From NCBI GenBank assembly GCA_965203415.1, contig CBDBCS010000006.1:67942-131941 (forward strand): 64,000 nt of DNA, given 5' to 3'. How positions within the stretch are numbered: position 1 is the stretch's first letter; each line of letters opens with the position of its first letter. The notes beneath the pieces were generated by a model. It ran no database searches, had not been told where the DNA came from, and worked only from the letters and a program-made list of their open reading frames with translations. Shown piece by piece: positions 2,842 to 48,362 of this stretch. Origin of the DNA: Alphaproteobacteria bacterium (GTDB lineage Bacteria; Pseudomonadota; Alphaproteobacteria; CBDBCS01). Both the position numbers and the translations under genes were made by a program.

Positions 2842-5805
2842 ATGTCTATCGAAACGACTCAAGGAATCATTCGCCCGGTCTCCATCGAGGGCGAAATGAA
2901 GCGCTCGTACCTCGATTACGCCATGAGCGTCATCATTGCTCGGGCGCTGCCCGACGTCCGAGACGGGCTCAAGCCGGTGCATCGGCGGATTCTCCATGCG
3001 ATGCACGAGAACAGTTATTTCTCGACGCGGCCCTATCGCAAATCGGCTCGGATTGTCGGGGAGGTGATGGGGAAGTATCACCCACACGGCGACTCGGCCA
3101 TTTACGAGGCCCTCGTGCGCATGGCACAGGTTTTCTCCATGCGAGTCCCCCTCATTGATGGGCAGGGGAATTTTGGTTCTATGGACGGCGATAAGGCAGC
3201 CGCCATGCGGTATACGGAATCGAGACTCCAGAAAATCGCCGAGACGCTCCTGCAGGATATCGGGCACGAGACGGTCTCTTTCAAGCCCAATTACGATGAA
3301 TCCGAGCAGGAACCCGTTGTTTTACCGGCGACTTTCCCGAATTTACTCGCCAATGGGGCGAACGGCATCGCGGTCGGGATGGCGACCAACATTCCGCCGC
3401 ATAATCTAGGCGAGCTCTTGAGTGCCTGTATTCACCTGACACTGAACCCCGAGGCCACGCTCGCCGAGGTGAATCAGATCATCCCAGGGCCCGATTTTCC
3501 CACAGGCGGCATTATTCTAGGCCGGTCTGGCATCCAAGACGCCTATAAAGTGGGGCGCGGGTCTATTGTGGTACGCGCCCGCACGGCGTTCGAAACGGTC
3601 AATCATCGCGACGCCATCATCGTCACAGAGCTCCCTTATCAGGTCAATAAGGCTCGAACCATAGAACGCATCGCCGCGATGGTGCGCGATAAACAAATGG
3701 AGGGCATCACAGATATACGCGACGAGTCCGACCGACACGGCGTTCGGGTGGTGTTTGAACTCAAAAAAGAGGCCAGCTGTGAGGTCGTAGAGGCTCAATT
3801 GTTTCATTCGACCCCGCTCCAGACCAGTTTCAGTGCGAATGTTCTGGCTCTGGACGAAGACGGAAAGCCGACCCATTACGATCTGCTCAAATATCTGCGA
3901 GCCTTTTTGCGTTTTCGCGAAGAGGTCCTTTCAAAGCGGACCTTTTATTTACTCCAGAAAGCTCGGGTTCGGGCGCATGAATTATTGGGGCTCTTGTGTG
4001 CGGTGCGTCATCTGGACCGCGTCATAGAGCTCATTCGTCGTTCGACCTCGCCTCGCGAGGCGCGGGAGGCTCTATGTTCTCAGACGTGGGAGGCGGGTTT
4101 TATGGCGGCTTATATTCGTCTCATTGACGACCCGTCTTTTTCCGAAGAGGCCCCCGCTTATCGCTTATCGGAGGCCCAAGCGGTTGCGATTTTGGATTTG
4201 CGGCTCCATCGGCTCACGGCTTTGGAGCGCGACAAAATCACCCAAGAGTTCGACCAGCTGGCCGAGACCATTCGGCACTATCAAAGGATTCTCGCGGACC
4301 GAGACTTTCGTCTAGAGCTGATGCGCCAGGAGTTTCAAGACCTCTCGGACCGTTTTGCGACGCCTCGGCGGACGGAAATCCAAGAAGCCGGTGCCGAAAC
4401 CGACATAGAGGACCTCATCGAGCCGCAAGATGTCGTGGTGGTGGTCACGCGGAATGCCTATATTAAGCGCGTCCCGCTCTCGGAGTTCCGCTCGCAGCGG
4501 CGGGGCGGTCGAGGGCGCAGCGGCACCACGACGCGTGACGACGATGTTGTCGCGAATCTCTTTGTGGCGAACACGCATAGTCTATTGCTTGTTTTCACCG
4601 ACCGAGGGCAGGTGTATTCTTTGAAAGTCTGGCGTTTGCCTCAGGGGACTCGGGCTTCGCGAGGCCGGGCGCTTGTCAATTGTTTGCCTCTGGAGCCGGG
4701 AGAAACTGTCTGGACGCTTCTACCTGTCCCGGCCGACGCTCTCGAGACCCCTTATTCGATTGTCATGGCGACCAGTTTCGGGTCTGTCCGGCGCAACACG
4801 CTGGATCTTTTCACCAATCTGAGAAAAAATGGCAAGATCGCCATTCAGCTCAAAGAAGAAGAGCGGCTGGTCGGCGTAGAGCTCTGTACGGAGGCGCATG
4901 ATATTCTGTTATGTTCGGCTCAGGGGCGAGCGGTTCGTTTCTCGCTTGCCTCGTTGCGGATTTTTCAGAGCACGCGCTCGGCGGGCGTCGGCGGCATCCG
5001 GCTTGCCTCGGGCGACCGGCTTGTTTCGCTGTGCGTTCTGAACCGGAGTTCTCAAGACACAGAAACGCGACACAGTTATCTGCGATTTGCGGCTCTTTCG
5101 CGACGCCAGGAGGCCTTTGAGGCGGCGACGGCCGAGGCGGCCGAGGCAGAAACCGAGGCAGAAACCGAGGCGGCTGTGTCCTCTGCGGAAGGATTTCCGA
5201 CGCCGGCGCCGGCGGACGACGAGGAGGAATCGGAGGAAGCCCCGGTCTCTTTAGGCGACGGGCCTCTCAAGCCGGAAGAATACGAAGAACTCCAGGCGGG
5301 ACGGGAAAAAGAGCTTTTCCGCCAGCTCGAACAAGAGGAGGAATGGCTTCTCACGATTGCCGAGAACGGTTTTGGGAAGCGGACGTCCTCTTATGAATAC
5401 AGGCACTGTCAGCGTTATGCCAAGGGCGTCAAAGCCATGAACGTAGATGGAACTTCTCTTTTGACGGCGTTTCCGGTCTCGGACCGGGATCATATTATGA
5501 TGATAACGGACGCTGGGCAGACCATACGTGTGCCTGTTGCGGGCATCCGACCGGCGGGGCGCGTGACAAGAGGCGTGCGTCTCTTCCGCACGGCCGAGAA
5601 AGAGCGTCTCATTTCCGTCGCCCGCGTCGAGGCCGCCATGGCCGCCGAAGAAACGGCGGACGCGACCGAGGCGGAAGCAACGGCGGAAACGGCGGCGGAA
5701 ACGGCGGAGACGAACCCAGCAGGCCCAGGCCAGCCGACAGCCCCCGCAGAGGCACACAGAGAAGCCGTCGCCTCCATCGAAGAAACGGAAGAAACGACAC
5801 GGTGA
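2842..5805 (+). CDS. gyrA: DNA gyrase subunit A
   Basis: ORF 2833..5805. Motifs: [57 protein letters not shown] (active-site Tyr region AAMRYTE). ATG at 2842 preferred over TTG at 2833. Acidic/Ala-rich insertion in the CTD and an acidic tail. Confidence 0.97.
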
Positions 5806-15099: not shown

Positions 15100-15460
15100 C
15101 CGTCTTCCGTGAAAACCCGGAGAATAAACTGGGGGCGCATGCCGCGAGGACCCGAGCCTCGGGCGGTTCTTCGGGAAGTTAGGCCGGAGGCGGCTCGGCG
15201 TCAGTTTAGCATGAATTTTTATTTTCTGCCTCTTGACGAGACACCTTTAACGCGATAGGCTCCCTTTTGCGTGCCGCCTCTCCCGTCTCCCGTCGGGGCA
15301 GGAGGAAGGCGTCGGGAGAACACACCGGGCTAGGGCCAAAATAGGAGCCAGAGTCACAAGACCGTGGTGAAAACATCGTGAAGCTCAAGAGCCGTGGGCC
15401 GTACACGCGTCTCGCTCCGGGAACGCGGTGCACCCGTTGAGACCGGTCAGCCTGTGCACT

Positions 15461-15721
15461 CGACGTCTCGAAGCATGAAAATAGTAAGTTGTGAGCCTCG
15501 GTTGCGCTGCTTGTCCAGACGAGCTCATCTGCCTGCAGGTCCTGTTTGAGCCACGCTCGCACCTGTTCGAGACGCGCGCGCTGTTTCTGGCCCGGCCTGT
15601 GCACCGAAGAGCCATTCTCTAAAAAAGAGTCCGCCTCCAGTGTACGGAGCAACGCGACGACCTCCTCCGTCAGAGGAGCCGTCGCATTCCAGTCAAAATA
15701 AACAAGCGGAGCACTCAACAT
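15461..15721 (-). pseudogene. truncated 5' copy of the cysteine desulfurase gene (87 codons)
   Basis: ORF 15206..15721, same N-terminal 87 residues, then read-through into repeat sequence. Confidence 0.85.
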
Positions 15722-15854
15722 CCATCTTCCATGAGAACCCCGGATAACAAACTGGGGCGCATGCCGCGAGGACCCGAGCCTCGGGCGGTTCTTCGGGAAG
15801 TTAGGCCGGAGGCGGCTCGGCGTCAGTTTAGCATGAATTTTTATTTTCTGCCTC

Positions 15855-15883
15855 TTGACAAGACGCTTCTAACACGATAGGCT
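15855..15883 (+). promoter_or_regulatory. putative acyl-CoA ligase promoter TTGACA-17-TAGGCT (gene-proximal copy)
   Basis: Copies with TTGACG occur at 13344-13372 and 15233-15261 in the upstream repeat units. Confidence 0.4.
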
Positions 15884-16029
15884 CCCTTTTGCGTGCCGCC
15901 TCTCCCGTCGGGGCGGGAGGCAGGCACCGGAAACACACCGGGGAAACACACTGGGGAAACACACCGGAAACACACACCGGGCTAGGGCCAAAACAGGAGC
16001 CAGCGTAACAAGACCGTGATAGAAGCACC

Positions 16030-17910
16030 GTGAAGCTCAAGAGCCGTGGGCCGTACACGCGTCTCGCTGTCGAGACGGCGGAGTCTCTGCCGGGCCTTTT
16101 TTTCACCCAGGCGACGCTTTTAGCGGATAGGCCTCTGTTTTACGCCTGGAAAGGGCCGGAGGCTTCGCGCGAGGCGGCCGCCTCGACCGCCTGGGTCTCG
16201 ACGAGCTGGCGGGACGCGGCGCGCAAAGTCCTGCATCTGGCGGCCCTGTTCCAGAGTCGCGGGCTTCAACCAGGTGCCCGAGTCTGTCTTTTAGCCGAAA
16301 ATTGCCCCGAATGGGGGATTGCTCATTTAGCCATTATGACGGCGGGCGGTTTATCGGTACCGCTCTATACGACGAACACGCCCGAGTCCCATCGGCATAT
16401 TATATCGGACAGCGGGGCTCGAGTTGCGGTTATCTCGGCGAGTCTGCTTGTTCCGTCTCTTCTTGAAACACTTGCGGGGCATCTGGATTGGATCCTGGTT
16501 CTGGGACCAGAGCAGGCCTCCGCCGCTAGCCGGCAAAAGAGCACCTCTCTGCCGCTTATTTTCCGCAATCTGGCGGAGGAAACCGACCCGCCCGAACCGC
16601 CGGCGGAACAGCGGCGCCATTTTATGAAAACCCTGTCGGATGTCAATAGAGACGATACGGCTGTTCTGATTTATACCTCTGGCACGTCGGGGGAGCCTCG
16701 GGGCGTCATGCTCAGCCACGAGAATATCTTATCCAATATGCGGTCGGCTTTGCCGATTTTACGGAGCCTCCGAGGCTTTGACATCGGCAGCGAGCGTTTT
16801 TTGTCTTTTTTGCCTCTCAGTCACGCCTATGAGCACATGGCGGGTTTTTTTCTACCGCTCGCCATCGGCGCGCGGGTCTGGTACTGTCCTGCCCTAGAGT
16901 ACCTGATAGAGCTCATTCCTCAGGTTCGTCCGACGATTATGACGGCCGTCCCGCGTCTTTATGAGATTTTATACGACCGCATCCACCGGAATCTGGCGAA
17001 GAGCTCGCCGCGTCAACGCCGTCTGTTCGAGGCAACCCGGGCGGTGGGGCATAAACGCCTTCATGGACAGAGCCTCTCTTTGGGAGACTTCTTGTTCGAC
17101 AAGAGCCTAGGCTCTGTCGTTCGGCGCAAGGTGGCACGGCGGTTTGGCGGAGAATTGCGAGGCTTTATCAGCGGTGGGGCGCCTCTTCACCCTGTTATCG
17201 GCGATTTTTTCCTGAGCATGGGGGTTTTGATACTCCAGGGCTATGGCCTGACCGAGACGTCGCCGGTTGTCTCGGTCAATCTTCCTCAGAACCCGTTGAG
17301 TGCGACCGTCGGGCCGCCTCTGGCGGGCACGGAGGTGAAAATCGCCTCGGACGGCGAAATTCTGGTCCGAGGCCCCTGCGTCATGAAAGGCTATTGGGGA
17401 CAGAGCGACGCGACCCAACGCGTCCTCTTGCCGGAGGGTTGGCTGGCGACGGGCGATTGCGGCGTTTTGACACCGGAGGGGCATCTCCAAATCATTGACC
17501 GCAAGAAGGATATTTTTGTCACGTCGGGAGGCGATACGATCGCGCCTCAAAAAATGGAGGGGCTGTTGAATCTGCAGCCCGAAATCGCCCAGGCTCTGGT
17601 TGTAGGCGATGGACGGGCGCATCTTGGGGCTCTTATTTATGGAGCCGACGATGACAATGACACCGGCGACACTGGCGACACCGGCAATGACACCGGTGCC
17701 AGCCCATCCGTCAAGGAAAAACGGGCGCGCATCGCCCGAGCCCTCGAGCGCGTCAATGCAGAGCTCGCCCCTGCAGAGCGTCTCCGGCGGTTCCACGTGC
17801 TGGAAGAGGCCTTTTCTATCGAGAACGGTCTTTTGACACCGTCTCTTAAACCCCGGCGCGCTCGTATTGTCGCGCGCTATCGCGCCGAGATCGAGGCTCT
17901 ATACACCTAA
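16030..17910 (+). CDS. long-chain fatty-acid--CoA ligase (AMP-dependent synthetase/ligase)
   Basis: AMP-binding motif LIYTSGTSGEPRGVMLSH, plus GYGLTETS and TGDCGVLTPEGHLQIIDRKKD. GTG start. In-frame DTGDTGDTGNDTG repeat insertion near the C-terminus. Confidence 0.88.
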   Translation: MKLKSRGPYTRLAVETAESLPGLFFTQATLLADRPLFYAWKGPEASREAAASTAWVSTSWRDAARKVLHLAALFQSRGLQPGARVCLLAENCPEWGIAHLAIMTAGGLSVPLYTTNTPESHRHIISDSGARVAVISASLLVPSLLETLAGHLDWILVLGPEQASAASRQKSTSLPLIFRNLAEETDPPEPPAEQRRHFMKTLSDVNRDDTAVLIYTSGTSGEPRGVMLSHENILSNMRSALPILRSLRGFDIGSERFLSFLPLSHAYEHMAGFFLPLAIGARVWYCPALEYLIELIPQVRPTIMTAVPRLYEILYDRIHRNLAKSSPRQRRLFEATRAVGHKRLHGQSLSLGDFLFDKSLGSVVRRKVARRFGGELRGFISGGAPLHPVIGDFFLSMGVLILQGYGLTETSPVVSVNLPQNPLSATVGPPLAGTEVKIASDGEILVRGPCVMKGYWGQSDATQRVLLPEGWLATGDCGVLTPEGHLQIIDRKKDIFVTSGGDTIAPQKMEGLLNLQPEIAQALVVGDGRAHLGALIYGADDDNDTGDTGDTGNDTGASPSVKEKRARIARALERVNAELAPAERLRRFHVLEEAFSIENGLLTPSLKPRRARIVARYRAEIEALYT

Positions 17911-17984
17911 CGGGAAACCTAACGGGCTCGAGAGACGGCGAATTGCGTGCCTCGCCCGGTGTTTTTTGTGTTTTTTCTGTATGT

Positions 17985-18085
17985 GTATAAAGGTATGTGT
18001 ATAAGTGTATGTTTATACAAGCGTATGTGTATAAGTGTGTGTTTATAAATGTATGTTTATAGAAGTGTATGTGTGTAAGTGTATC
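17985..18085. repeat. degenerate AT-rich GTATGTGTATAAR-type short tandem repeats
   Basis: gtatgtgtataaaggtatgtgtataagtgtatgtttatacaagcgtatgtgtataagtgtgtgtttataaatgtatgtttatagaagtgtatgtgtgtaagtgtat. Confidence 0.8.
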
Positions 18086-19852: not shown

Positions 19853-21007
19853 ATGGAATCATCCAGAAAACAGAAGCTCCGTCTCGGACTGGTCGGAGCC
19901 GGCTACATGGGCAAGGCCCACAGCTTCGGCTACAAGGTTGCCAACACGGTTTTTGATTTACCGCTCGAATTGGTCTGCGAGCTCCTCGCCACCTCCACCG
20001 TGGAGGGCGCGGCTCAAAAGGCGGCCGAGCTGGGGTGGAAGCGTTCGACGGGGTCCTGGCGCGATCTTTTGTCGGACCCAGAGGTAGACGCTGTGAATCT
20101 TTCGGTTCCGCCGCATTTACATGCTCAGATGGCTCTGGCGTGTCTGGCGGCCGGCAAGCATGTTTTCTGTGAAAAACCCATGTGTCTGAGCCTCGAGGAG
20201 GCCCGCCAAATGGCCGAAATGGCTGCCACGGCCGCCAGACGGACGGGTCTGGTGACGATGATGGGCTTCAATTATATCAAGCACCCTGCCTCGCAATTGG
20301 TCCGACAGATGATCGCTCAGGGCGAGATAGGCGACATCATCCAATATCATGGGACGCATGTCGAGGATTTTTTCCACGACCCTGCTATACCGGCGGGTTG
20401 GAAAACGCGGCAGAGCGTCTCGGGGCGTTATGGGACGCTTCTGGATTTAGGGTCTCATATGCTTAATTGTGCTTTGGGGCTCGTCGGCCCCATGGAGGCG
20501 GTGATGGCGGACATCCATACGTATTACAAAGAGCGTCCTGCCCCGGCTGGCGGCGGGACCGAGAGGGTAGAAACAGATGATTTCGGCCAAATTCTAGTCC
20601 GGTTCGCCAATGGAGCCTCGGGGACGCTCCACTACAGCCGGCTTGCGGCGGGGCGCAAGATGGGCTATGCTTACGAGATCATCGGCACGCGTGGTTCTCT
20701 CCGCTTCGATCAGACCCGCATGGGCGAGGTACTCTACTATCGTTCGGACGGGCCGCGAGCCAGACAGGGGTATCAGCAGATTTTACTGGGCCCCGAGCAT
20801 CCCGATTATCGTCCTTTTCTTCTCAGTGCGGGCCACGGCATCGGCTATAATGAGATGATGGCCATCCAGGCACGCGAATTCACCCAGGCCATTCACACGG
20901 GCGTCTCGCCTTGGCCCAGTTTCCAGGACGGCTTGACGGTGATGGAGGTCACCGAAGCTATCAAACGCTCCTTTGAGGAAAAAACATGGCAAACGCTTCC
21001 CCAATAA
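19853..21007 (+). CDS. Gfo/Idh/MocA-family oxidoreductase (inositol dehydrogenase-like)
   Basis: N-terminal Rossmann LRLGLVGAGYMGKAH and the EKP motif VFCEKPMCLS. Confidence 0.8.
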   Translation: MESSRKQKLRLGLVGAGYMGKAHSFGYKVANTVFDLPLELVCELLATSTVEGAAQKAAELGWKRSTGSWRDLLSDPEVDAVNLSVPPHLHAQMALACLAAGKHVFCEKPMCLSLEEARQMAEMAATAARRTGLVTMMGFNYIKHPASQLVRQMIAQGEIGDIIQYHGTHVEDFFHDPAIPAGWKTRQSVSGRYGTLLDLGSHMLNCALGLVGPMEAVMADIHTYYKERPAPAGGGTERVETDDFGQILVRFANGASGTLHYSRLAAGRKMGYAYEIIGTRGSLRFDQTRMGEVLYYRSDGPRARQGYQQILLGPEHPDYRPFLLSAGHGIGYNEMMAIQAREFTQAIHTGVSPWPSFQDGLTVMEVTEAIKRSFEEKTWQTLPQ

Positions 21008-21066
21008 ACGCGCCTGGGCGTGCTTCGTCTGATGTGTCTTCGTCCCCGGGTCTATCTATAGGGGCG

Positions 21067-22269
21067 ATGGCCTCGAGAGCGGGTCGGTCTTATCCGATTC
21101 GCTGGGGGCTGATAGGTGGCGGACGAGACAGCCAGATCGGTTCGGCGCATCGGATTGGGGCTCAAATGGATGGTCATTTTGTCCTCCGAGCGGGCGCTTT
21201 TGACATAGACGCGGCGCGAAATCAGGCTTTTGGGGCGGAATTGGGCTTGCCGCCAGAGCGCGTCTATGACGACTGGGAAACCATGCTCGAACAGGAGGCG
21301 CAACGCCCGGACGGCATAGAGCTTCTCACGATTGCGACGCCGAACCGGATGCATTATCCTGTTGCGGTCAAGGCGGTGTCGCTAGGTTTCGGCGTTTTTT
21401 GTGAGAAGCCTCTGACGCTGACGCTGCAGGAGGCCTGGCATCTGCGAGACCTTGTTGCTCAAAAAAAGGCTTTATTTGGCGTTAATTTCAGTTATCTCGG
21501 CTATCCGCACATCGAGCAGCTCCGCCAGATGGTGCTGGCGGGCACTTTCGGAGCCATTCGCCTGGTTGTCATGGAGTTCTCGCACGGTCACCACACGACG
21601 GATTTGGGGCCGGACGGGGCGGAGAATCCTCGCATTCGTTGGCGTTATGATCCCCTCGAGGCCGGCCCGAGCGGCATTCTAGCCGATTGTGGGACGCATC
21701 CTCTTTACCTGGCGCGCTATATTCTTGGGAGTCCCTGTCAAGCTGTCCTGGCGGATTTTGTTTCGGTGGTGCCTTCTCGCCGGATCGAGGACGATGCTTT
21801 TTTAGCTCTGCGTTTTGCCAATGGGGCGGTTGGGCGTCTATGGACGAGCTCTGTGGCTTTGGGTCAGACGCATGGGCTTTCCATCCGCTTATTCGGCGAA
21901 AAAGCTGGGGCGGTGTGGTCTCAGGAGCACGGAAATCAGCTTGCGGTGACGTATCCTCACGGGCGGACGGAGATCTTTGAGCGCGGGGCGTCTTATCTTC
22001 ACGCGCTGGCTCAGGCCAATTCGCGCGTCACGGTGGGACAGATGGAGGGCTTTCTCGCGTCCGAAGCCAATATCTATCGCGAATTAGCCCAGAGCTTTAT
22101 CCAAGGCAGCCCGACCTCTGCCCTGCCCTCTATTGAGGCGGGGGTCGAGATGAGCGAAATCGTCGAGGCCGCTGTCCAATCGGCGGGAGCGGGCGGGCAG
22201 TGGCGGACGCTCCCGCTGGACCCGGCTCTCATGGAGGCAGAGCAGACGGCGGCGGCAAAGGAGGTGTAA
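21067..22269 (+). CDS. Gfo/Idh/MocA-family oxidoreductase; start 21067 preferred over 20986
   Basis: IRWGLIGGGRDSQIGSAH and VFCEKPLTLT. Confidence 0.75.
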   Translation: MASRAGRSYPIRWGLIGGGRDSQIGSAHRIGAQMDGHFVLRAGAFDIDAARNQAFGAELGLPPERVYDDWETMLEQEAQRPDGIELLTIATPNRMHYPVAVKAVSLGFGVFCEKPLTLTLQEAWHLRDLVAQKKALFGVNFSYLGYPHIEQLRQMVLAGTFGAIRLVVMEFSHGHHTTDLGPDGAENPRIRWRYDPLEAGPSGILADCGTHPLYLARYILGSPCQAVLADFVSVVPSRRIEDDAFLALRFANGAVGRLWTSSVALGQTHGLSIRLFGEKAGAVWSQEHGNQLAVTYPHGRTEIFERGASYLHALAQANSRVTVGQMEGFLASEANIYRELAQSFIQGSPTSALPSIEAGVEMSEIVEAAVQSAGAGGQWRTLPLDPALMEAEQTAAAKEV

Positions 22270-22534
22270 AATTGGGGAGGGAGCTCGTGTTTTTCGCCTG
22301 ATTTTCTCAAAAACGTACCGTTAAGGCGAGGTATTTTTAGGATTTTCTCAAGTTACGCATGGAGATTTTTTGAAGAAAAGTGAAAAATCGGTAGGCAAAA
22401 AAGAATGAACTAGAAAGACGCACCGGGAGGAAAGATATCAGAACCCAACGGTTTTGCCCTGGGGCCCGGGTGGTCTGCCCTGGGTTTGTCCCGGGTAGCC
22501 GCCATTCAGGCGTTTCAAGAGGCCCATCTCCCGG

Positions 22535-22720
22535 GTGGTCTGCCCGGGTGGTCTGCCGCGGGGGTCGCCTGCCACGGGAGTCGCCTGCCACGGGGCTCGC
22601 CTGCCACGAGAGTCGCCTGCCGCGGGGGTCGCCTGCCACGAGAGTCGCCTGCCACGAGAGTCGCCTGCCACGAGAGTCGCCTACCACGGGGATTGCCTGC
22701 CACGGGGGTCGCCTGCCACG
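22535..22720. repeat. 16-nt tandem repeat (GTCGCCTGCCACGNGA)n, about 10 units
   Basis: cacgagagtcgcctgc reiterated. The ORF-track peptides show the expected 16-aa periodicity on both strands. Confidence 0.9.
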
Positions 22721-24625
22721 CCTCCGACGAGAACAGAAAAAACACCTCGGCCCTATCGGCCCACTCCTTAATCTGTACCGAGGTTGTGTCCTGGGTCCGT
22801 CCGGACCCGCCACTGCCGAGAACAGAAAAAAACAGCTTGGCCCCATCTATCGCCCATGCCTTAGTCTGTACCGAGCTTGTGTCCCGGGTCTGCCCTGAGT
22901 CCGTCCGGACCCGCCACTGCCGAGAACAGAAAAAAACAGCTTGGCCCCATCTATCGGCCATGCCTTAGTCTGCACCGAGGTTGTGTCCCGGGTCCGTCCT
23001 GACCCCCCTCCGACGGGAACAGAAAAAACAGCTTGGCCCTATCTATCGGCCCTTCCTGAATCTATACCGGGTCTGTGTCCTGGGTTTGGCCTGACCCGCC
23101 TCCGCCGCCGAGAGCAGGAAAAACAGCTTGGCCCCATCTATCGGCCATGCCTTAGTCTGCACCGAGGTTGTGTCCCGGGTCCGTCCTGACCCCCCTCCGA
23201 CGAGAACAGGAAAAACAGCTTGGCCCCATCTATCGGCCATGCCTTAGTCTGTCCCGGGGTTGTGTCCCGGGTCTGTCCTGAGTCCGTCCGGACCACCTCC
23301 GACGAGAACAGAAAAAACAGCTTGGCCCCATCTATCGGCCATGCCTTAATTGGCCCCATCTATCGGCCATGCCTTAATCTGTACCGAGGTTGTGTCCCGG
23401 GTCTGTCCTGAGTCCGTCCTGCCCCGCCTCCGACGAGAACAGGAAAAAACAGCTTGGCCCCATCTATCGGCCATGCCTTAATTGGCCCCATCTATCGGCC
23501 ATGCCTTAATCTGTACCGAGGTTGTGTCCCGGGTCTGTCCTGGGTCCGTCCTGCCCCACCTCCGACGAGAACAGAAAAAACCCCTCGGCCCCATCTATCA
23601 GCCATGCCTTAGTCTGTACCGAGGTTATGTGCCGGGTCTGTCCTGAGTCCGTCCTGCCCCGCCTCCGACGAGAACAGGAAAAACGCCTCGGCCCTATCGG
23701 CCATGCCTTAGTCTGTACCGAGGTTGTGTTCCGGGTCTGTCCTGAGTCCGTCCGGACCACCTCCGACGAGAACAGAAAAAACCCCTCGGCCCCATCTATC
23801 GGCCATGCCTTAGTCTGTCCCGGGGTTGTGTCCCGGGTCTGCCCTGAGTCCGTCCTGCCCCGCCTCCGACGAGAACAGAAAAAACGCCTCGGCCTTATCT
23901 ATCGGCCATGCCTTAGTCTGTACCGAGGTTGTGTCCCGGGTCTGTCCTGGGTCCGTCCTGCCCCACCTCCGACGAGAACAGAAAAAAACAGCTTGGCCCC
24001 ATCTATCAGCCATGCCTTAATCTGTACCGAGGTTGTGTCCCGGGTCCGTCCTGCCCCGCCGCCGACGAGAACAGAAAACAGCACCTCGGCCCCATCTATC
24101 GGCCATGCCTTAATCTGTCCTGGGTTTGTGTACCGGGTCTGTCTTATCCTGCCTCCTCCGACGAGAACAGAAACAGCACCTCGGCCCCATCTATCGGCCA
24201 TGCCTTAGTCTGTACCGAGGTTGTGTCCCGGGTCTGTCCTGGGTCCGTCCGGACCCGCCACTGCCGAGAACAGGAAAAACGCCTCGGCCCCATCTATCGG
24301 CCATGCCTTAATCTGTACCGAGGTTGTGTCCCGGGTCTGTCCTGAGTCCGTCCGGACCCGCCACTGCCGAGAACAGGAAAAACGCCTCGGCCCCATCTAT
24401 CGGCCATGCCTTAATCTGTACCGAGGTTGTGTCCCGGATCCGTCCTGAGTCCGTCCTGCCCCGCCTCCGACGAGAACAGAAACAGCACCTCGGCCCCATC
24501 TATCGGCCATGCCTTAGTCTGTCCCGGGGTTGTGTCCCGGGTCTGCCCTGAGTCCGTCCTGCCCCGCCTCCGACGAGAACAGGAAAAACGCCTCGGCCTT
24601 ATCTATCGGCGGCCTCTATCGGCGG
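22721..24625. repeat. array of about 19-20 units of a ~103-bp tandem repeat (93-133 bp); each unit is hairpin + U-tract on the minus strand
   Basis: Motif ggccccatctatcggccatgcc recurs at about 22839, 22941, 23034, 23129, 23221, 23323, 23456, 23588, 23690, 23789, 23890, 23995, 24088, 24183, 24287, 24390, 24493. ORF-track starts at 24221/24324/24427/24530 give an exact 103-bp period. Confidence 0.93.
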
Positions 24626-24661
24626 TCTTCTCTTCGCCCCCTTTTTTTCGGCGGCTGTTTC

Positions 24662-25801
24662 TTACTTTTTGGCGCGCCTGTTCGAGGGAGACGCAAGCGA
24701 TTTGTCCTCATGTTCCGGCGTTTTCCCGGTGTCCCCGGTTTCCTCGAGCAACAAGCGCGCTTGGGCCTCGGCGGCGAGCGAGTCCAGAAGCACGTCTAAC
24801 CCCCCCTGCATCACTTTGTCGAGGTCGTGCAGCGTCAGATGGATTCGATGGTCGGTGACGCGACTCTGGGGAAAATTATAGGTCCGGATACGTTCGGACC
24901 GGTCGCCCGTTCCGATTTGAGACCGCCGCTCCGCCGAGCGTTGGCGCGTTTGTTCGTGCCTCTTTTTATCGAAAAGACGAGCCTGAAGGACGCGCATCGC
25001 TTTCTCGCGATTTTTGTGCTGTGATTTTTCGTCCTGACACTGCACGATGATTCCGCTCGGCAGGTGAGACACACGCACGGCACTATCGGTGGTGTTGACG
25101 TGCTGGCCGCCTGCGCCTTGCGCGCGAAAGGTATCGATGCGCAGGTCTTTTTCATCGATCGAGACGTCTATCGAGGTCGCCTCTGGGAGGATAGCGACCG
25201 TCGCCGTGGATGTATGAATCCGGCCGCCGGACTCGGTTTCTGGGATGCGTTGGACTCGATGGACGCCCGACTCAAATTTGAGTCTTCCATAGACTCCCTC
25301 GCCTTTGACGCTCAATTGGAGTTCTCGGCATCCGCCGATTTCGGTCTCAGAGAGGGCTAAAATCTGGGTGCGCCATTTTTTAATATCGCAATACCGCTGA
25401 TACATGCGAAACAGGTCCATCGCAAAGAGAGCCGCCTCATCACCGCCGGCGGCGGTGCGTATCTCCAGAATGACGTCCCGAGCGTCCACCTCGTCGCGAG
25501 GCAAAAGCAGCGTTTTAATCGTCCCCTCCAATTGTTCGAGCTGGCTGGAAAGAGTGGCGACCTCCTGTTCGGCGAGTTGGCGCAATTCGGGGTCGGCTTC
25601 TCGGGCCAAAACCAGAGCCTGGGCTTGCTCTTGGTCTAATTGACGGTATTGGTTTATCACCCGAGCCAGAGGCTCCAGCGTGGCGAGGGCTTTGTTTTTT
25701 TCAACCAAAGCCGGCACGGAAAGCTCGCCTGCGGCGAGCTCGCCCTGTAGATTCGCATAGGTCTGGGCGATGCTGTCCAATTTGTCGCGCCATTTCTGCA
25801 T
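24662..25801 (-). CDS. prfA: peptide chain release factor 1
   Basis: GGQ motif RAQGAGGQHVNTTDSAVRVSHLPSG and RIHTSTATVAILPE. ATG at 25801 overlaps the hisS stop by 1 nt (TGATG). Confidence 0.95.
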   Translation of the reverse strand: MQKWRDKLDSIAQTYANLQGELAAGELSVPALVEKNKALATLEPLARVINQYRQLDQEQAQALVLAREADPELRQLAEQEVATLSSQLEQLEGTIKTLLLPRDEVDARDVILEIRTAAGGDEAALFAMDLFRMYQRYCDIKKWRTQILALSETEIGGCRELQLSVKGEGVYGRLKFESGVHRVQRIPETESGGRIHTSTATVAILPEATSIDVSIDEKDLRIDTFRAQGAGGQHVNTTDSAVRVSHLPSGIIVQCQDEKSQHKNREKAMRVLQARLFDKKRHEQTRQRSAERRSQIGTGDRSERIRTYNFPQSRVTDHRIHLTLHDLDKVMQGGLDVLLDSLAAEAQARLLLEETGDTGKTPEHEDKSLASPSNRRAKK

Positions 25802-27189
25802 CACGAGCCCCCCGACGACACAGGACGGAGGCAGGCTCCATAGTGCTGGCGCAAATACGCGCAGAGTCCGTCTCGAGCGACCGTTTCCTGGGTCCCGGTG
25901 TCCAGATTTTTGACCGTTATCTCAGTTATCTCGGTCTGCTGCCCGTCGTCCCAGAGCAAAAGCACCGCGCGCGTCGGCGGCGCGGCGGCTCGGCGCAGGT
26001 TTTTTTTCAGGCTCCCCTCGGTGAGGACCAGGCGTAGGGCGAAGCCCGCCCGGCGGAGTTCCTCGGCCAATTGGGTCGCCTGGGCATATTGAGACACGCT
26101 AAAAGCGTTTGGGTCGTCCTCCGTCACCGGTGTTTTTTCGGCCGGCGTCTTTCGAGCCGACACGATGGCGAGCATGGCTTGTTCTTGTTCTTGCGCCTGC
26201 CTCTGGGCGAGCAGCACGAGTCTCTCGAGGCCAGCGGCCCAGCCTCGGCATGGAAAGGCAAAATGGCGCGCTTTTTCGCCTCCGATGAGTTCCAACAGGC
26301 CCGTGTAAAACCCTCCTGCGAGCACGGTCGAGGGCCCGCCTAATTCGGAAGCTTCTGAGGCGACAAATTCAAAGACGACGTGGCTGTAATAGTCCAGGCC
26401 TCGGACGAGCCTCGGGTCCAAACGATAGGGCACGCCGCACGCCGTCAGAGCCTCACAGATCTGTTCCAGATAAAGATTAGCCTGGGGCGTAAAATAAGAG
26501 GCCCGCCCGGGCGCATCGGCCAGAATCTCTTGGTCTTCCGGGGCCTTGGAGTCCAGAATACGCAGCGGGTTCGTGGCAAGCCGCCGGCGCGAGTCCGGAC
26601 TCAAGGCGTGGGCTTTGCTCGAGAAATACTCGAGGACGGCTTTTTTCCAATTGTCGCGTGAGAGCTCGTCCCCCAAGCTGTTGAGCGTCAATTCAGCCCG
26701 AATACCCAGCGTTTCTAGCAGGGTTCGGGCACATAGAAGGACCTCTAGGTCGGGTTCCAAGCCCGTGCTATTGAGGAACTCCACGCCGATTTGATGAAAC
26801 TGGCGTTGGCGTCCTTTTTGCGGGCGTTCATAGCGGAACATGGGGCCGGCGTAGAAGTATTTTTGGTCTTTTTGCCCCATCAAGCCCTCAGAGACGACCA
26901 TACGCAGGATCGAGGCGGTATTCTCGGGCCTCAGGACGAGCTGCTGTTGGTTTTTATCCGGGAATTCATACATTTCCTTGGCGATGATGTCAGAGGCAAG
27001 GCCAAGAGAACGCCGAAACAGAGCCGCCGTCTCCACAAGAGGCGTTTCCACCTCGGCATAGCCGTACCCGAGCAGATGGTGGCGCGCATGAGCCAGGAGG
27101 CTCTGCCGTTGACGGCAGGCCAGCGGCAGCACATCCGGCATGCCGCGGACTCGCCCTATCGATTCGGCAAAGGGGGGAGAGGACGTCAC
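25801..27189 (-). CDS. hisS: histidine--tRNA ligase
   Basis: RGMPDVLP, EVETPLVE, LRPENTASILRMV, FRYERPQKGRQRQFHQ (class II motifs). Confidence 0.95.
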   Translation of the reverse strand: MTSSPPFAESIGRVRGMPDVLPLACRQRQSLLAHARHHLLGYGYAEVETPLVETAALFRRSLGLASDIIAKEMYEFPDKNQQQLVLRPENTASILRMVVSEGLMGQKDQKYFYAGPMFRYERPQKGRQRQFHQIGVEFLNSTGLEPDLEVLLCARTLLETLGIRAELTLNSLGDELSRDNWKKAVLEYFSSKAHALSPDSRRRLATNPLRILDSKAPEDQEILADAPGRASYFTPQANLYLEQICEALTACGVPYRLDPRLVRGLDYYSHVVFEFVASEASELGGPSTVLAGGFYTGLLELIGGEKARHFAFPCRGWAAGLERLVLLAQRQAQEQEQAMLAIVSARKTPAEKTPVTEDDPNAFSVSQYAQATQLAEELRRAGFALRLVLTEGSLKKNLRRAAAPPTRAVLLLWDDGQQTEITEITVKNLDTGTQETVARDGLCAYLRQHYGACLRPVSSGGS

Positions 27190-27844: not shown

Positions 27845-28900
27845 CATGCCATAAAAATGCCACGAACAGGAGGCGTCCTCTGAGGAACTCTGTGTCATCG
27901 GGCTTCTCTGGATGGATGGAGCGTCTCTTTTTTGGACGCGTTTGGACGCGTTTAGACACGAATAGACACGAATAGACACAAACGGGCGGGCTCGATTCTC
28001 GACATTCTTTTTTGGAACCCTTTGATAGGCCGTCTCGGGGCACGCAAGAGAAAACCATCTCAAATCGGCGTAGACCAGCGTAAGCCCCGGCATAATTCCG
28101 GCATAATCCTGGCATAATCCCGGGATTAACCTCGGGAAACGGCACAAGAGTCTCATCCTGGAAACCCTGGAAACCCCCGACGATAACGCCACAAAAACGC
28201 CAGAGAAGCGGCGGAACAACGCACCAATAACCATAGCACGAACATACCACAAGCTCAGGAGGCGTCCTCTGAGGAACTCTGTGTCATCGGGCTTCTCTGG
28301 ATAGATGGAGCGTCTCTTTTTTGGACGCGTTTAGACATACATAGACACGAATAGACACAAACGGGCGGGCTCGATTCTCGACATTCTTTTTTGGAACCCT
28401 TTGATAGGCCGTCTCGGGGCACGCAAGAGAAAACATCTCAAATCGGCGTAAGCCAGCGTAGGCCCGGCATAATTCCGGCATCATCCCGGCATAATCCCGG
28501 GATTAATCTCGAGAAACGGCACAAGAGTCTCATCCTGGAAACCCTGGAAACCCCCGACGATAACGCCATAAAAACGCCAGAGAAGCGGCGGGACAACGCA
28601 CCAATAACCATAGCACGAACATACCACAAGCACAGGAGGCGTCCTCTGAGGAACTCTGTGTCATCGGGCTTCTCTGGATGGAGGAAGCGTCTCTTTTTTG
28701 GACGCGTTAGACATACATAGACACGAATAGACACAAACGGGCGGGCTCGATTCTCGACATTCTTTTTTGGAACTCTTTGTTCGGCCGTCTCGGGGCACGC
28801 AAGAGAAAACCATCTCAAGTCGGCGTAGGCCAGCGTAGGCCCCGCATAATTCCGGCATCATCCCGGCATTAATCTCGGGAAACGGTACAAGAGTCTCATC
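27845..28900. repeat. ~380-bp non-coding tandem repeat, about 2.8 copies
   Basis: caggaggcgtcctctgaggaactctgtgtcatcgggcttctctggat at 27867, 28256 and 28633 (periods 389 and 377). Internal micro-repeats ggcataatNcc and agacacgaat. Confidence 0.9.
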
Positions 28901-28934: not shown

Positions 28935-29100
28935 TTTCTCTTGTCCTGCCTCTTCTTTGCCTCACCCCTTCTTTGCCTCGCCCCGCCTTGCCGCTGCCCT
29001 ATTTCGCCTCTGCTGCTTGCCCGACTCGCCCCTTTTTGCTGTGCCTCGCGCCGCCTTGCCGCTGCCCTATTTCGCCTCTATTGCTTGCCTGCCTCACCCT
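28935..29100. repeat. 68-bp x2 CT-rich direct repeat
   Basis: ccgccttgccgctgccctatttcgcctct(g/a)(c/t)tgcttgcc at 28983 and 29051. Confidence 0.8.
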
Positions 29101-38753: not shown

Positions 38754-40160
38754 TCAAAAAAGGACGCCAGGGTTGAGAATGCCGTCCGGATCAAAAAGAG
38801 CCTTCAAACGCCGCATACAGGCCAAAGTGACAGGCGTATGAAAACGACCCAGAGCGGGCACCAAAAAGCGTCCGATGCCGTGCTCGGCACTGATGGTTCC
38901 GCCGTGAGCGACTGCCATCTGCTGGACGAGCGCCTGGATCTCGGACGCTTGGTGCTCCCAGGCTTTCGGAGACAGCTGCGCCCCGTTCGGACAGGCGACC
39001 GAATAATGGAGACTGCCGTCGCCTAAATGGCCGAAAGGGAGGCTCAAACAATCCGGGAAAAGCCTCGAGAGCTCAGATTCCAGCGTTTCGACGAAGCCAG
39101 GCAGGCGCGAGAGAGGCACGGCGATATCATTCTTGACGAGCTTCCCAAAATGGCCGGCGGCCTCGGGCGTAAGCGTGCGCAGACGCCAAAAAGTTTCTTT
39201 TTGGCGTTCGCTCTGAGCAAACCAGGCGTTCAGCAGTTTGTCGTCGTGGCGTCCGAGCTCATCCTGCCACAATTCGGCCAGAGGCAGTGTCGGATGATTC
39301 GTCGTCAGCTCTGCCAGCAGCCACCAGGCGGGAGCGGAGTCCAGCTGTAGATTCAAGCCTCCGGCTTGGACGGCGGTGCGAGCCAGAGGCCCTGATAGGA
39401 CCTCAAAAGCCGAGAGAAAGTCCTCGAAAAGAGCCCGCCAGCTGCAAAAGAGCTCCAAAGCATGCGCGAGCGAAGCAACGCCCAACAGACAGAGAACCGA
39501 TTGCTGAGGACGGCGATAGAGCTTCAAATGAGCGGCGGTCAAAATCGCCAGCGTGCCCTCGCTTCCGACCAAGAGGGGTGTCAAGGCATACCCGGCGTTA
39601 TTTTTGGGCAGCACGACGCGCTCTTTATAGATTTCGCCGGTGCCTAAGACGGCCTCCACGCCCCAGACGAGGGCCCGAGCCATGCCGTATCGAACGACAT
39701 GGATGCCCCCTGCATTGGTCGACAAAAGCCCGCCGAGCGTCGCCTGATCCTGACTTCCGAACTCCAGGGGGAAGTGGAGATGGTGCGTCTCGGCGAGGGC
39801 CCGGGCTTCGGCGAGGGTCATGCCTGCCTCTACGGTCATGGTCTGGCTCTGGGCGTCGAGGGCTCGGAGGCGTTTCATGCGCTCCAGGGTCAGTAAAATC
39901 GGCTCCGGCCCTTCTGCAGAGCCCCTGCAAGGCGTCGAGCCCCCCACGAGGCCGGTGTTGCCGCCCTGTATCTGCAGAGGCGTACGTGTTTCCCGACAAT
40001 AGCGGCAAATAGTTGCGACGTCCTCGGTCGTCCCCGGGAGCAGATGGAACCGGCACGCGCCCTCGAGGCGTTTGCGCCAGTCGGTCAAACGAGGCTGCGT
40101 TTGGTCCGGCGAGGCGAGCTCGGTATCCGAAAGACGGGCGCGCAACGCTTCCAGAGTCAC
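38754..40160 (-). CDS. FAD-linked oxidase (GlcD / D-2-hydroxyacid dehydrogenase family)
   Basis: 468 aa. FAD-binding PCMH region LLPGTTEDVATICRYCRETRTPLQIQGGNTGLVGGSTP, C-terminal GGTISAEHGIG...FDPDGILNPGV. GTG start. Confidence 0.85.
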   Translation of the reverse strand: MTLEALRARLSDTELASPDQTQPRLTDWRKRLEGACRFHLLPGTTEDVATICRYCRETRTPLQIQGGNTGLVGGSTPCRGSAEGPEPILLTLERMKRLRALDAQSQTMTVEAGMTLAEARALAETHHLHFPLEFGSQDQATLGGLLSTNAGGIHVVRYGMARALVWGVEAVLGTGEIYKERVVLPKNNAGYALTPLLVGSEGTLAILTAAHLKLYRRPQQSVLCLLGVASLAHALELFCSWRALFEDFLSAFEVLSGPLARTAVQAGGLNLQLDSAPAWWLLAELTTNHPTLPLAELWQDELGRHDDKLLNAWFAQSERQKETFWRLRTLTPEAAGHFGKLVKNDIAVPLSRLPGFVETLESELSRLFPDCLSLPFGHLGDGSLHYSVACPNGAQLSPKAWEHQASEIQALVQQMAVAHGGTISAEHGIGRFLVPALGRFHTPVTLACMRRLKALFDPDGILNPGVLF

Positions 40161-40800
40161 GATGACACAATCAACAGCAGGGGCACAGCAGAGTCACAGC
40201 AAGACCACCGCCTGATGGTGACGGGCAGACTCGAGGGCCATTCTACAGAGGCAATGCGCCAGTCGGTCAAACGAGGCTGCGTTTGGTCCGGCGAGGCAAG
40301 CTCGGTGTCTGAAAGACGGGCGCGCAACGCTTCCAGAGTCACGATGACACACTCAACAGCAGGGGCACAGCAGAGTCACAGCAAGACCACCGCCTGATGG
40401 TGACGGGCAGACTCGAGGGCCATTCTACAGAGGCAATGCGCCAGTCGGTCAAACGAGGCTGCGTTTGGTCCGGCGAGGCAAGCTCGGTGTCTGAAAGACG
40501 GGCGCGCAACGCTTCCAGAGTCACGATGACACACTCAACAGCAGGGGCACAGCAGAGTCACAGCAAGATCGCCACCTGATAGTGACGGGCGGACTCGGGG
40601 GCCATTCTACAGAGGCAATGCGCCAGTCGGTCAAACGAGGCTGCATTTGGTCCGGCGAGGCGAGCTCGATGTCCGAAAGACGGGCGCGCAACGCTTCCAG
40701 AGTCACGATGACACAATCAACAGCAGGGGCACAGCAGAGTCACAGCAAGACCGCCACCTGATAGTGACGGGCGGACTCGGGGGCCATTCTACAGAGGCAA
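40073..40800. repeat. 182-bp x4 tandem array = first 28 codons of the FAD-oxidase gene + ~95 nt upstream
   Basis: ORFs 40157..40342, 40339..40524 and 40521..40706 all begin MTLEALRARLSD(T/I)ELASPDQ(T/M)QPRLTDWR. Exact 182-nt register. Confidence 0.92.
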
Positions 40801-47883: not shown

Positions 47884-47933
47884 CAGCCGTTGCGAGCAGA
47901 ATACGCCCCAAAAGAGAGGAAAATACGAAAAGC

Positions 47934-48359: not shown

Positions 48360-48362
48360 CGA

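Follow-up and report, generated by a model that had tools for sequence, protein, structure and literature searches.

A probable hypervariable intergenic minisatellite grown from the native spacer between convergent Gfo/Idh/MocA and prfA genes in an alphaproteobacterium

In a 64,000-nt stretch of an alphaproteobacterial contig (hereafter the window), a head-to-tail repeat array was found by TRF at 22724-24610, in the gap between two convergent genes. Taken together, our analyses favor the view that this array is probably a hypervariable intergenic minisatellite (VNTR) that grew from the native spacer between the two genes. The left neighbor encodes a Gfo/Idh/MocA oxidoreductase (20986-22269, plus strand; Pfam PF01408, PF22725 and PF02894) and is syntenic in two related loci, L001 and L010. 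The right neighbor is prfA, encoding peptide chain release factor 1 (24662-25804, minus strand; Pfam PCRF and RF-1 domains), with hisS upstream of it (25801-27189, minus strand). Both the flanking genes and the location of the array agree with an original prediction made from this DNA, which described about 20 repeats, each resembling an intrinsic terminator facing the hisS-prfA operon. The prfA protein of the window is identical to P0122, which is encoded on a 1.79-Mb NCBI/ENA contig.

By TRF and by parsing with the anchor GAGAACAG, the array was resolved into 18 full units (22729-24574, no strand assigned) and one truncated unit. The full units are 89-132 nt long with a modal length of 103 nt, nine of them measuring exactly 103 nt. 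Each unit starts with GAGAACAG, an A-run, a CCTCGG or GCTTGG arm and GGCC-N9-GGCC, and continues with CCTTARTCTGTA, a CCGAGG arm, three to four GTYYGTCC sub-repeats of ~12 nt and CCGCCTCCGAC. A 25-nt core of the unit has 17 copies in the array, against 0 expected from shuffles, and no copy outside the array across the 64-kb window. The units, 18 full and one truncated, are direct repeats in a noncoding location, as is typical of minisatellites. They do not fill the whole gap, as had been supposed: the array covers 1.9 kb of the 2392 bp between the two stop codons, and the left 460 bp consist of a unique flank, a 13-bp repeat and a 16-bp repeat.

Several other kinds of repeat or locus were considered and rejected. 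No unique spacers lie between the repeats, as had been predicted, the entire 103-nt period being repeated, and a CRISPR array, in which repeats alternate with spacers, was ruled out. ORFs inside the repeats (for example, 23522-24208 on the plus strand and 22337-22846 on the minus strand) have no Pfam match; since the period varies and is not divisible by three, no reading frame is kept and a protein-coding repeat was rejected. A replication origin or terminus was also ruled out, because there is no GC-skew switch at the locus.

The variation among units is organized in blocks. Units 7 and 8 each contain an exact 28-nt internal duplication, at 23322-23378 (TRF period 28, 2.0 copies, 100% match) and 23454-23510 (TRF), respectively; the two internal re-duplications had thus been correctly noticed, though their length had been put at 29 nt. 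As the duplications in the two units are identical, units 7 and 8 represent a recent block duplication, and TRF detected a 132-bp period with 3.0 copies and 94% match at 23220-23611. Higher-order periods of 132, 206 and 395 bp are present in the window and one of 431 bp in L001. The left arm and the unit tail had both been described as alternating between two forms. In fact, the GCTTGG arm occurs in eight units that are clustered (units 2-8 plus unit 13), and the tail has at least four variants arranged in runs (variant 1, n = 4; variant 2, n = 7; hybrids, 2 + 2; odd, n = 3). The two GGCC blocks, ATCTG and GAGAAC...A-run are invariant in all 36 units compared from the window and L001.

Elements of the native spacer can still be recognized on both sides of the array. 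The Gfo side carries a unique, "leader-like" flank (22270-22450), which is single-copy in the window and conserved in the relatives, with 70-80% identity to L001 and L010, about the neutral level; a longer version of this flank is incorporated into the repeat of both relatives. Short-period repeats were identified by TRF at 22530-22720, namely CCCGGGTGGTCTG (13 bp, 2.8 copies) and CTGCCACGGGAGTCGC (16 bp, 10.5 copies). Both are related to the ~11-12-nt GTCTGTCC sub-repeat inside each unit, and their equivalents in L001 are 11-bp and 27-bp versions (TRF). On the prfA side, the truncated 19th unit (24575-24644) lies within a native segment (24575-24661) that shows 80-90% identity in all three loci and consists of a hairpin flanked by A-rich and U-rich arms (fold z = -1.4). 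The terminator scan found a terminator-like site within it on the plus strand (24621-24648), in which GGCGGTCTTCTCTTCGCC is followed by CCCTTTTTTT with T7, and from its modeled fold this native element probably served as a bidirectional terminator. Alignment showed that the first ~36 nt of the short units are common to this segment, which is the probable seed of the array.

We compared the locus in three genomes (the window, L001 and L010), two of which come from one sample; the genes of the L001 and L010 contigs are ~92% identical to those of the window. Arrays are present at the same locus in all three and are differently built. The gap of L001 (2394 bp) contains ~21 units of 75-90 nt and three long units of 195-226 nt, the long units having three internal copies of the Gfo-side flank segment. 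In L010, where the homologous stop codons are 732 bp apart and a probable frameshift lies at the 3' end of prfA, the gap contains 1.9 copies of a 202-nt unit and the single native terminal element, with no short units. The structure of the array differs between close relatives at one locus, as is typical of a VNTR. Furthermore, alignment of the long unit, the short unit and the terminal element revealed the short unit to be chimeric, one part of it matching the native prfA-proximal sequence and the other the Gfo-side flank.

Between the window and L001, the consensus units agree at 61 of 76 positions (80%), equal to the identity at fourfold-degenerate sites (79-83% between the window and L001; 76-83% across the three loci), indicating that the units have diverged at the neutral level. 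Units are 85-87% identical within an array and 75% identical between arrays. Together with the neutral-level divergence, this points to concerted evolution without extra constraint, with variants in blocks, as is also found in VNTRs.

The original prediction had left it open whether the unit is dispersed or unique. A profile HMM of the unit, with which nhmmer recovered every unit, found matches confined to the Gfo-prfA gap when 114 kb of lineage sequence was searched (the window, 64 kb, plus four contigs totaling 50 kb). REP/BIME elements are scattered over a genome in many copies, and where they form clusters their orientation alternates. Like them, the units described here contain a palindrome, lie at gene 3' ends between convergent genes and are clustered, as REP/BIME elements sometimes are; unlike them, they are strictly head-to-tail and occupy one locus, and a dispersed REP-like element is ruled out for these 114 kb. 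A strict unit pattern had no match in GTDB genome contigs, and blastn with four units (395 bp) had none in plasmids and phages. In JGI metagenome contigs, a two-block pattern gave seven single matches, all of which were unrelated coding-like sequence and due to chance. In the GTDB prfA protein scan, the nearest relative was no closer than 57% identity, so that no additional arrays came from it, and an exact look-up with the window's prfA gave no record.

A terminator in every unit is not what we observed. The minus-strand pattern CCTCGG-N24-32-CCGAGG-N1-3-TTTTT is present in 6 of the 18 full units, which keep the 6-bp stem followed by T5-7. The GCTTGG arm places a C·A mismatch in the minus-strand stem, and C·A mismatches break this stem in 11/18 units of the window and 12/18 units of L001. 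The 5-bp stem core is intact on the minus strand in 7/18 window units and 6/18 L001 units, and on the plus strand in 18/18 and 13/18, respectively, the plus-strand core being kept (31/36 units) through G·U pairs. T-runs of at least five are found in 15/18 units, the A/T-run being just 3-4 nt in units 14, 15 and 18, and the minus strand of the array has 16 runs of at least five T's. The 6-bp stem closes a ~30-nt loop and is not a compact hairpin, and a simple terminator scan (loop 3-8) matched 1 of 19 units. Elsewhere in the window, the scan gave a modest enrichment (34 sites versus 25.4±5.5 expected, and 28 versus 18.4±3.8), the clearest sites being compact hairpins with 3-8-nt loops. Single-unit folds on both strands were no better than those of shuffles (z = -0.06 to -1.0 in the window and +0.07 to +1.1 in L001), and the minus-strand values (window, -0.85 to -0.99; L001, +0.74 to +1.09) revealed no unusual stability. 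Moreover, the inner GGCC pair, which had been drawn as nested in the outer stem, uses the same two G's as that stem, so the two cannot both form, and the minus-strand stem positions mutate without compensation, an outcome that the original prediction had itself named as refuting it. Of the terminator facing prfA, the motif in one third of the units thus stands, whereas stem, T-run, fold stability and covariation do not support it. As in intrinsic (Rho-independent, including bidirectional) terminators, the native element and one third of the units show, on the sense strand of prfA, a GC-rich stem with a T-run after it and, as in bidirectional ones, an A-rich stretch on the other side of the stem; unlike in them, the stem has 6 bp with a ~30-nt loop, is broken in most units and is no more stable than shuffles, and three units have lost the T-run. 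The hairpin-plus-T-run of one third of the units most likely descends from the native prfA-proximal segment. The "array of 20 terminators" is thereby removed from the candidates for new regulatory devices, and the case illustrates how a minisatellite can take over the appearance of a terminator from its seed. The doubt, voiced with the original prediction, that some 20 terminators would be needed, and its mention of a recombination hotspot as an alternative, pointed in the right direction.

These results also bear on how far the array might be functional. It is unlikely that the array is a functional terminator stack or insulator, in which weak terminators in series would act against minus-strand read-through from hisS-prfA and possibly plus-strand read-through from the Gfo operon, thereby preventing convergent transcriptional collision. 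The six intact stems, the 16 minus-strand T-runs, a native element adjoining prfA that resembles a bidirectional terminator, and the expanded spacer kept at the locus in all three relatives are in keeping with such a role; the stems broken by C·A mismatches, the T-runs lost in three units, a loop unlike those of the compact terminator-like hairpins elsewhere in the window, fold energies that do not exceed shuffles, the absence of short units from L010 and the neutral level of divergence argue against it. Some observations would fit selection of a less specific kind, and these weigh against a purely neutral minisatellite: repeats are expanded in the same gap of all three relatives, where a long or repetitive spacer could be selected, several blocks are invariant in all 36 units, the plus-strand core stem is kept in 31 of them through G·U pairs, and equal consensus divergence is compatible with selection on the length, bending or hairpin density of the whole array. 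On such a reading, which we consider quite improbable, the repeated independent expansion in three relatives would be non-neutral, and selection would keep a long buffer with many hairpins and A-tracts that is transcribed from the plus strand. Such a buffer would take up or end colliding transcription, or it would titrate a protein that binds RNA or DNA; if true, the array would exemplify how tandem repeats are used throughout the genome of a deep-branching, GC-rich alphaproteobacterium, in which they make up 11-24% of the DNA sampled, more than in the record holder Ehrlichia ruminantium. An assembly artefact, that is, a repeat collapsed or inflated by long-read assembly, is hardly credible. 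The contig names suggest long-read metagenome assemblies, in which the exact copy number of such arrays can be mis-called, and the probable frameshift in L010 prfA would agree with this; however, repeats occur in the same gap of three independent contigs, the units are heterogeneous with ordered variants, unlike a collapsed consensus, and the 1.9-kb array is shorter than typical long reads.

There is very little likelihood that the units form a structured RNA array on the plus strand or are tandem small-RNA genes. In that case each unit would encode one hairpin module, its transcription would start on the Gfo side or at a promoter in every unit, and the RNA would regulate other genes or act as a protein sponge. 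The plus strand has the better core pairing (18/18 and 13/18 units, versus 7 and 6 on the minus strand), its stem pairs occur in the states U-A, U-G and C-G and never C-A, and the terminator-like hairpin with T7 at 24621-24648 closes the array on this strand. Yet only ~3 mutational events underlie the strand asymmetry, for which the probability of a chance origin is consequently ~1 in 8. In the outer stem, paired cells were no more frequent than in column shuffles (101/500 shuffles did as well) and its covariation score was marginal (23/500 shuffles); compensatory evolution of the outer stem was accordingly rejected, as the U-A/U-G/C-G series is real but comprises few events and fails the shuffle control. 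RNAalifold retained 3-4 invariant GGCC/GGCC pairs alone, without covariation and without the outer stem, and the 3' stem arm of L001 is part of a sub-repeat introduced by an indel. In addition, plus-strand folds are unremarkable (z = -0.06 to -0.43 in the window), Rfam gave no match to the unit, whether at the gathering threshold or with E<=1, no sigma-70-like promoter was found on either strand of 21800-25200, a consensus that alphaproteobacterial promoters may escape, and the unit differs among close relatives (103 nt, 76-79 nt or absent). Tandem sRNA arrays such as cyanobacterial NsiR1 consist of ~100-bp direct repeats with a terminator-like hairpin ending each unit. By comparison, the present array has terminator features in just one third of its units, no per-unit match to the sigma-70 consensus (with the same reservation for alphaproteobacterial promoters), no conserved fold, and a unit architecture that is not kept between close relatives. 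The chance is similarly slim that a DNA-binding protein is recruited many times to a protein-binding or nucleoid-organizing array, for which the putative sites would be the phased ~11-12-nt GTCTGTCC sub-repeats, the invariant TCGGCC pair or the A-tracts. Each unit contains 3-4 sub-repeats spaced at ~11-12 nt, this sub-repeat also builds the 11-, 13-, 16- and 27-bp edge arrays at all loci, and GGCC...GGCC is invariant in 36/36 units; the GTCTGTCC direct sub-repeats are reminiscent of the direct-repeat sites of OmpR/PhoB-type regulators. On the other hand, neither a cognate protein nor a match to the motif is known, the number and spacing of sub-repeats vary freely across units and genomes, the site lies between two gene ends with no promoter there to regulate, divergence is neutral, and slippage yields short-period repeats anyway.

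We therefore prefer the hypervariable minisatellite and infer the following course of duplication. The ancestral spacer would have comprised the unique Gfo-side flank, a few ~11-nt GTCTGTCC sub-repeats and the prfA-adjoining hairpin with its A-rich and U-rich arms. An illegitimate or slipped-strand duplication may have fused the first ~36 nt of the element on the prfA side (GAGAACAGGAAAAACGCCTCGGCC..ATCTATCGGC) with the tail of the flank on the Gfo side (CCTTAATCTG..CCGGGTCTGTCC..CCGCCKCCGAC), giving a unit of ~76 nt. Unequal recombination or replication slippage would then have multiplied single units and multi-unit blocks, and the same processes would have homogenized the units within each genome, while the unit itself was presumably altered by sub-repeat gain and by duplication of 28 nt. 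Some units would owe their terminator-like look to the seed, and this look would now be decaying. The array is probably fast-evolving, neutral and without sequence-specific function; at most, some units may contribute weak, redundant termination or help to space the convergent operons. With both parental flanks and three descendant arrays readable, the locus offers a clean worked example of the birth of a bacterial minisatellite.

The closest counterparts are VNTR-105 and VNTR-141 of Wolbachia, which lie in intergenic regions, contain hairpins and internal short repeats in periods of 105-141 bp, include deletion variants, vary in copy number between strains, and have been ascribed to hairpin-promoted slippage and concerted evolution (PMC3287509). 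The present array likewise lies between genes of an alphaproteobacterial host, has a comparable period with a hairpin and short direct repeats in each period, includes indel-variant periods, and differs in copy number or structure between close relatives. It differs from the Wolbachia VNTRs in its higher copy number (18-21 versus at most ~7), its lower within-array unit identity (85% versus 98-99%), its GC-rich genome, a unit architecture that differs between relatives, and a unit traceable to the native flanks of two convergent genes. The array would allow strains of this uncultivated lineage to be told apart at high resolution.

The tandem-repeat content of the lineage may carry more weight than the array itself. 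Tandem repeats cover 10.8% of the window, 12-24% of four other contigs of the lineage and 0.29% of 71 control loci, so that every lineage contig has 11-24% tandem repeats, duplicated gene ends included, and the coding density of the window is at most ~75%. Ehrlichia ruminantium, reported as the bacterium richest in tandem repeats, has 6.3% of them, with active expansion and contraction in noncoding regions, intergenic regions swollen by repeats with periods of ~100-150 bp, and a coding density of ~64% (PMC10710844). The low coding density is shared with the window, in which tandem repeats are more abundant (10.8% versus 6.3% with identical TRF settings). E. ruminantium belongs to the Rickettsiales, is AT-rich and lives as an obligate intracellular bacterium, whereas the lineage described here has 58% GC and GyrA and RF1 proteins that are just 50-58% identical to those of any other alphaproteobacterium. 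If the whole 1.79-Mb contig resembles the sampled 114 kb, the lineage would surpass E. ruminantium in tandem repeats, and a repeat-rich genome style would then not be confined to AT-rich obligate intracellular bacteria. Elsewhere in the window, tandem arrays consist of duplicated gene ends, and the tandem repeats of the lineage include in-frame repeats in the tail of prfA.

The Gfo/Idh/MocA gene, which ends at 22269 on the plus strand, and the prfA (RF1; 24662-25804) and hisS (25801-27189) genes on the minus strand, neighbours that agree with the original description, enclose a gap of 2392 bp between Gfo and prfA. The repeat array had been described as filling this whole gap; it accounts for 1.9 kb. 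The leftmost 460 bp of the gap contain a unique Gfo-side flank (22270-22450) and, at 22530-22720, short-period repeats with periods of 13 bp (2.8 copies) and 16 bp (10.5 copies). Tandem Repeats Finder (TRF) reported a single array (22724-24610), whose nested periods are 92, 103, 132, 206 and 395 bp. Parsed on an invariant anchor, GAGAACAG, the array comprises 18 full units (22729-24574) of 89-132 nt, nine of them 103 nt long, and a truncated 19th unit (24575-24644) running into the 3′ flank of prfA. A 25-nt core is present in 17 copies in the window, all of them in the array, and in none of 100 shuffles.

On the plus strand, each unit leads from GAGAACAG through an A-run of 3-7 to a 5′ arm, CCTCGG or GCTTGG, followed by GGCC-N9-GGCC, ATGCCTTARTCTGTA and the 3′ arm CCGAGG. 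Since the first GG of GGCC-N9-GGCC is part of the 5′ arm, the "inner" and "outer" hairpins are mutually exclusive. The 3′ part of the unit contains three to four direct sub-repeats of ~12 nt (GTTGTGTCCCGG, GTCTGTCCTGA, GTCCGTCCTGCC), which were missing from the original prediction, and then CCGCCTCCGAC. The variants had been said to alternate, but the GCTTGG arm is distributed blockwise, being confined to units 2-8 and 13, and the unit tail, with at least four forms, is arranged in runs. Furthermore, an exact 28-nt internal duplication is common to units 7 and 8. Such variant blocks and higher-order periods are the expected product of unequal exchange involving single units and multi-unit blocks.

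According to the original prediction, every unit looks like an intrinsic terminator facing hisS-prfA. This applies to roughly a third of them and not to the remainder: the pattern CCTCGG-N24-32-CCGAGG-N1-3-T5 was found on the minus strand in 6 of the 18 full units. The eight units with GCTTGG have CCAAGC as their 3′ arm on the minus strand, giving a C·A mismatch mid-stem, units 6, 11 and 18 (CCGGGG) have a further C·A mismatch, and the T-run is down to 3-4 in units 14, 15 and 18. Stem positions on the minus strand do mutate without compensation, an outcome that the prediction itself had named as speaking against it. Among 36 units from the window and one relative, five core pairs are intact in 13 on the minus strand versus 31 on the plus strand, and 75.0% versus 85.2% of cells are paired; the plus-strand stem survives because the same changes yield G·U pairs there, and the asymmetry traces to about three mutational events. 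A column-shuffle control was not convincingly beaten on either strand (plus strand: 101 of 500 shuffles paired as well, and 23 of 500 matched the covariation score). RNAalifold gave zero covariation on both strands, retaining the invariant GGCC/GGCC pairs alone, and the units folded no better than dinucleotide shuffles (z between -0.06 and -1.0 for the window, between +0.07 and +1.1 for the relative). A simple terminator scan detected one array unit; its matches elsewhere in the window were modestly above shuffles (34 vs 25.4±5.5 and 28 vs 18.4±3.8), the clearest being compact hairpins with 3-8-nt loops. No Rfam match was obtained for the array, even at E ≤ 1.

A protein identical to the window RF1 is encoded on a 1.79-Mb NCBI/ENA contig. 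The 90% cluster of RF1 is otherwise made up of only two proteins, each from ENA assembly ERZ25068803, and identity drops to 57-58% for the next relatives beyond it. For GyrA (gyrA, 2842-5802), no other protein exceeds 55% identity, and all best matches are in Alphaproteobacteria. Overall, GyrA and RF1 share only 50-58% identity with their best matches outside the lineage, and the closest RF1 matches are mostly alphaproteobacterial. The source lineage is therefore a deep-branching, poorly sampled one within this class.

The synteny hisS-prfA → gap ← Gfo-Gfo-KduI is kept in L001 and L010, contigs of two relatives whose genes are ~92% identical to those of the window, with 76-83% identity at fourfold-degenerate sites. 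In L001, the 2394-bp gap holds ~21 short units of 75-90 nt, without one or two of the window's sub-repeats, interrupted by three long units of 195-226 nt that each carry a copy of the Gfo-side flank. The L010 gap, 732 bp between homologous stop codons, consists of 1.9 copies of a 202-nt long unit plus one native terminal element, the prfA-proximal segment corresponding to 24575-24661 in the window; short units are absent from it altogether. Two adjacent Gfo/Idh/MocA genes of L010 (11388-13771) are called as one 726-aa fusion that stops ~200 nt short of the homologous stop codon, owing to a genuine rearrangement or else to an indel error in long reads. In this lineage, RF1 also has a low-complexity C-terminal extension of ~25-55 aa past the usual end, which is lengthened in the relatives by in-frame 9-bp (KPG-type) repeats (window 24662-24740; L001 1970-2036; L010 10532-10707). 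The L010 tail is seemingly frameshifted, the called ORF overrunning the homologous stop by 55 nt.

When the long unit, the short unit and the terminal element were aligned, GAGAACAGGAAAA(A/G)CG was common to all. The next stretch of the short units is as in the native prfA-proximal sequence (CCTCGGCC..ATCTATCGGC), and their end resembles that of the long flank-derived unit (CTTAATCTG..CCGGGTCTGTCC..CCGCCKCCGAC). This two-part match marks the short unit as a chimera of both native flanks, which appears to have arisen at a duplication junction between them. The native prfA-proximal segment is 80-90% identical across all three loci and folds into a hairpin with an A/G-rich 5′ arm paired to a U-rich 3′ arm (z = -1.4); it includes a plus-strand terminator-like hairpin with T7 (24621-24648). 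Judged from these features, it is plausibly a bidirectional terminator, and the A-run/T-run and half of the stem in every unit seem to derive from it.

Between the window and L001, the unit consensus sequences agree at 61 of 76 aligned positions (80% identity), matching the fourfold-site identity of the same two genomes (79-83%), with 70-80% in the unique flank, and mean unit identity is 85-87% within arrays versus 75% between arrays. Together, these values point to concerted evolution with no extra constraint detectable on the unit sequence. A profile HMM built from 36 units (window and L001) had matches in the window, L001 and L010 solely within this gap, with no match in the rest of these three, in two other contigs from the lineage (L091 and L092) or in 80 prfA loci from other bacteria. 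This search revealed no dispersed copies in the lineage contigs sampled, and a dispersed REP-like element was rejected because the unit is found at one locus only in the contigs searched. Unit pattern scans of GTDB genomes (a species set without the source genome) and JGI metagenomes, and blastn of the units against plasmid and phage sequences, yielded no match above chance level. A CRISPR array was rejected on its tested criteria, unique spacers being absent.

We consider the array to be most likely a hypervariable intergenic minisatellite grown from a native-spacer seed. The seed would have come from an illegitimate duplication that spanned the native spacer and terminator separating the convergent gene pair, slippage and unequal recombination would then have amplified, remodelled and homogenised the array, and the terminator-like features of its units would be inherited from the seed and decaying. 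The closest known cases are Wolbachia VNTR-105 and VNTR-141, intergenic repeats with periods of 105-141 bp, hairpins, internal short repeats and deletion variants, whose copy number differs between strains and which have been ascribed to slippage and concerted evolution (PMC3287509). The noncoding repeats of E. ruminantium, which actively expand and contract, are also close (PMC3287509, PMC10710844). The array agrees with every VNTR criterion that is testable and belongs to this already known class of minisatellites/VNTRs.

The competing explanations draw, as a group, on the expansion of the same gap in all three relatives, the invariance of some unit blocks and the survival of the stem on the plus strand. 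That the units act as a functional terminator stack or insulator is unlikely, the array having failed the tested criteria of an intrinsic terminator. It likewise failed those of a curated or covarying RNA, and a plus-strand structured RNA array or a set of tandem sRNA genes is very doubtful. We give slightly less credence to a protein-binding array on phased sub-repeats of ~11-12 nt, set beside a unit sequence free of detectable extra constraint, and an assembly artefact is highly improbable.

With TRF settings as in the Wolbachia study (2,7,7, minimum score 50, maximum period 500), tandem repeats cover 10.8% of the window (7.5% minus the focal array), 24% of L001, 17.9% of L010, 21.6% of L091 and 12.4% of L092, compared with 0.29% of 71 control loci from other bacteria and a published record of 6.3% in E. 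ruminantium (PMC3287509, PMC10710844). Repeat richness in this lineage may be exceptional; ORFs of at least 100 aa take up at most ~75% of the window. Repeats occur throughout the sampled contigs, so that the focal array exemplifies a habit seen across the sampled genome. This load is a by-product more notable than the array itself.

The 2.3-kb gap between the glcD-like gene and tldD is occupied by two arrays that duplicate gene ends: that of a 182-bp unit (40073-40800; 4 copies, 97% match) contains copies of the glcD-like 5′ end, and that of a 327-bp unit (40927 to ~42480; at least 3.3 copies) contains copies of the tldD 3′ end. An orthologous 338-bp unit (4.5 copies) lies downstream of tldD in L091 (5515-7027). 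Arrays that differ in each relative also lie in the divergent gap separating the hisS side from an aminotransferase gene (window 27866-28880 and 28952-29078), namely a 377-bp unit in 2.7 copies in the window, 63-bp and 26-bp (15.5 copies) units in L010 (5488-7345), and 66-bp and 43-bp (34 copies) units in L092 (1218-3077). An AT-rich 14-bp repeat, TGTATGTGTATAAG (17978-18084; 7.4 copies), stands out in the otherwise GC-rich genome and recurs in L001 (8844-8878) and L010 (17337-17371), in both lying beyond the KduI/Gfo gene cluster; this repeat may represent a regulatory or binding site. L010 also has a 165-bp unit in 11.6 copies over 1.9 kb (15194-17073), where the called ORFs are all small and without Pfam match. 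In the window, a 479-bp tandem duplication (47431-48360; 2 copies, 85% match) across ORFs 47239-47883 and 47871-48359 looks like a tandemly duplicated small gene, and the corresponding end of L091 carries a glyoxalase-family gene.
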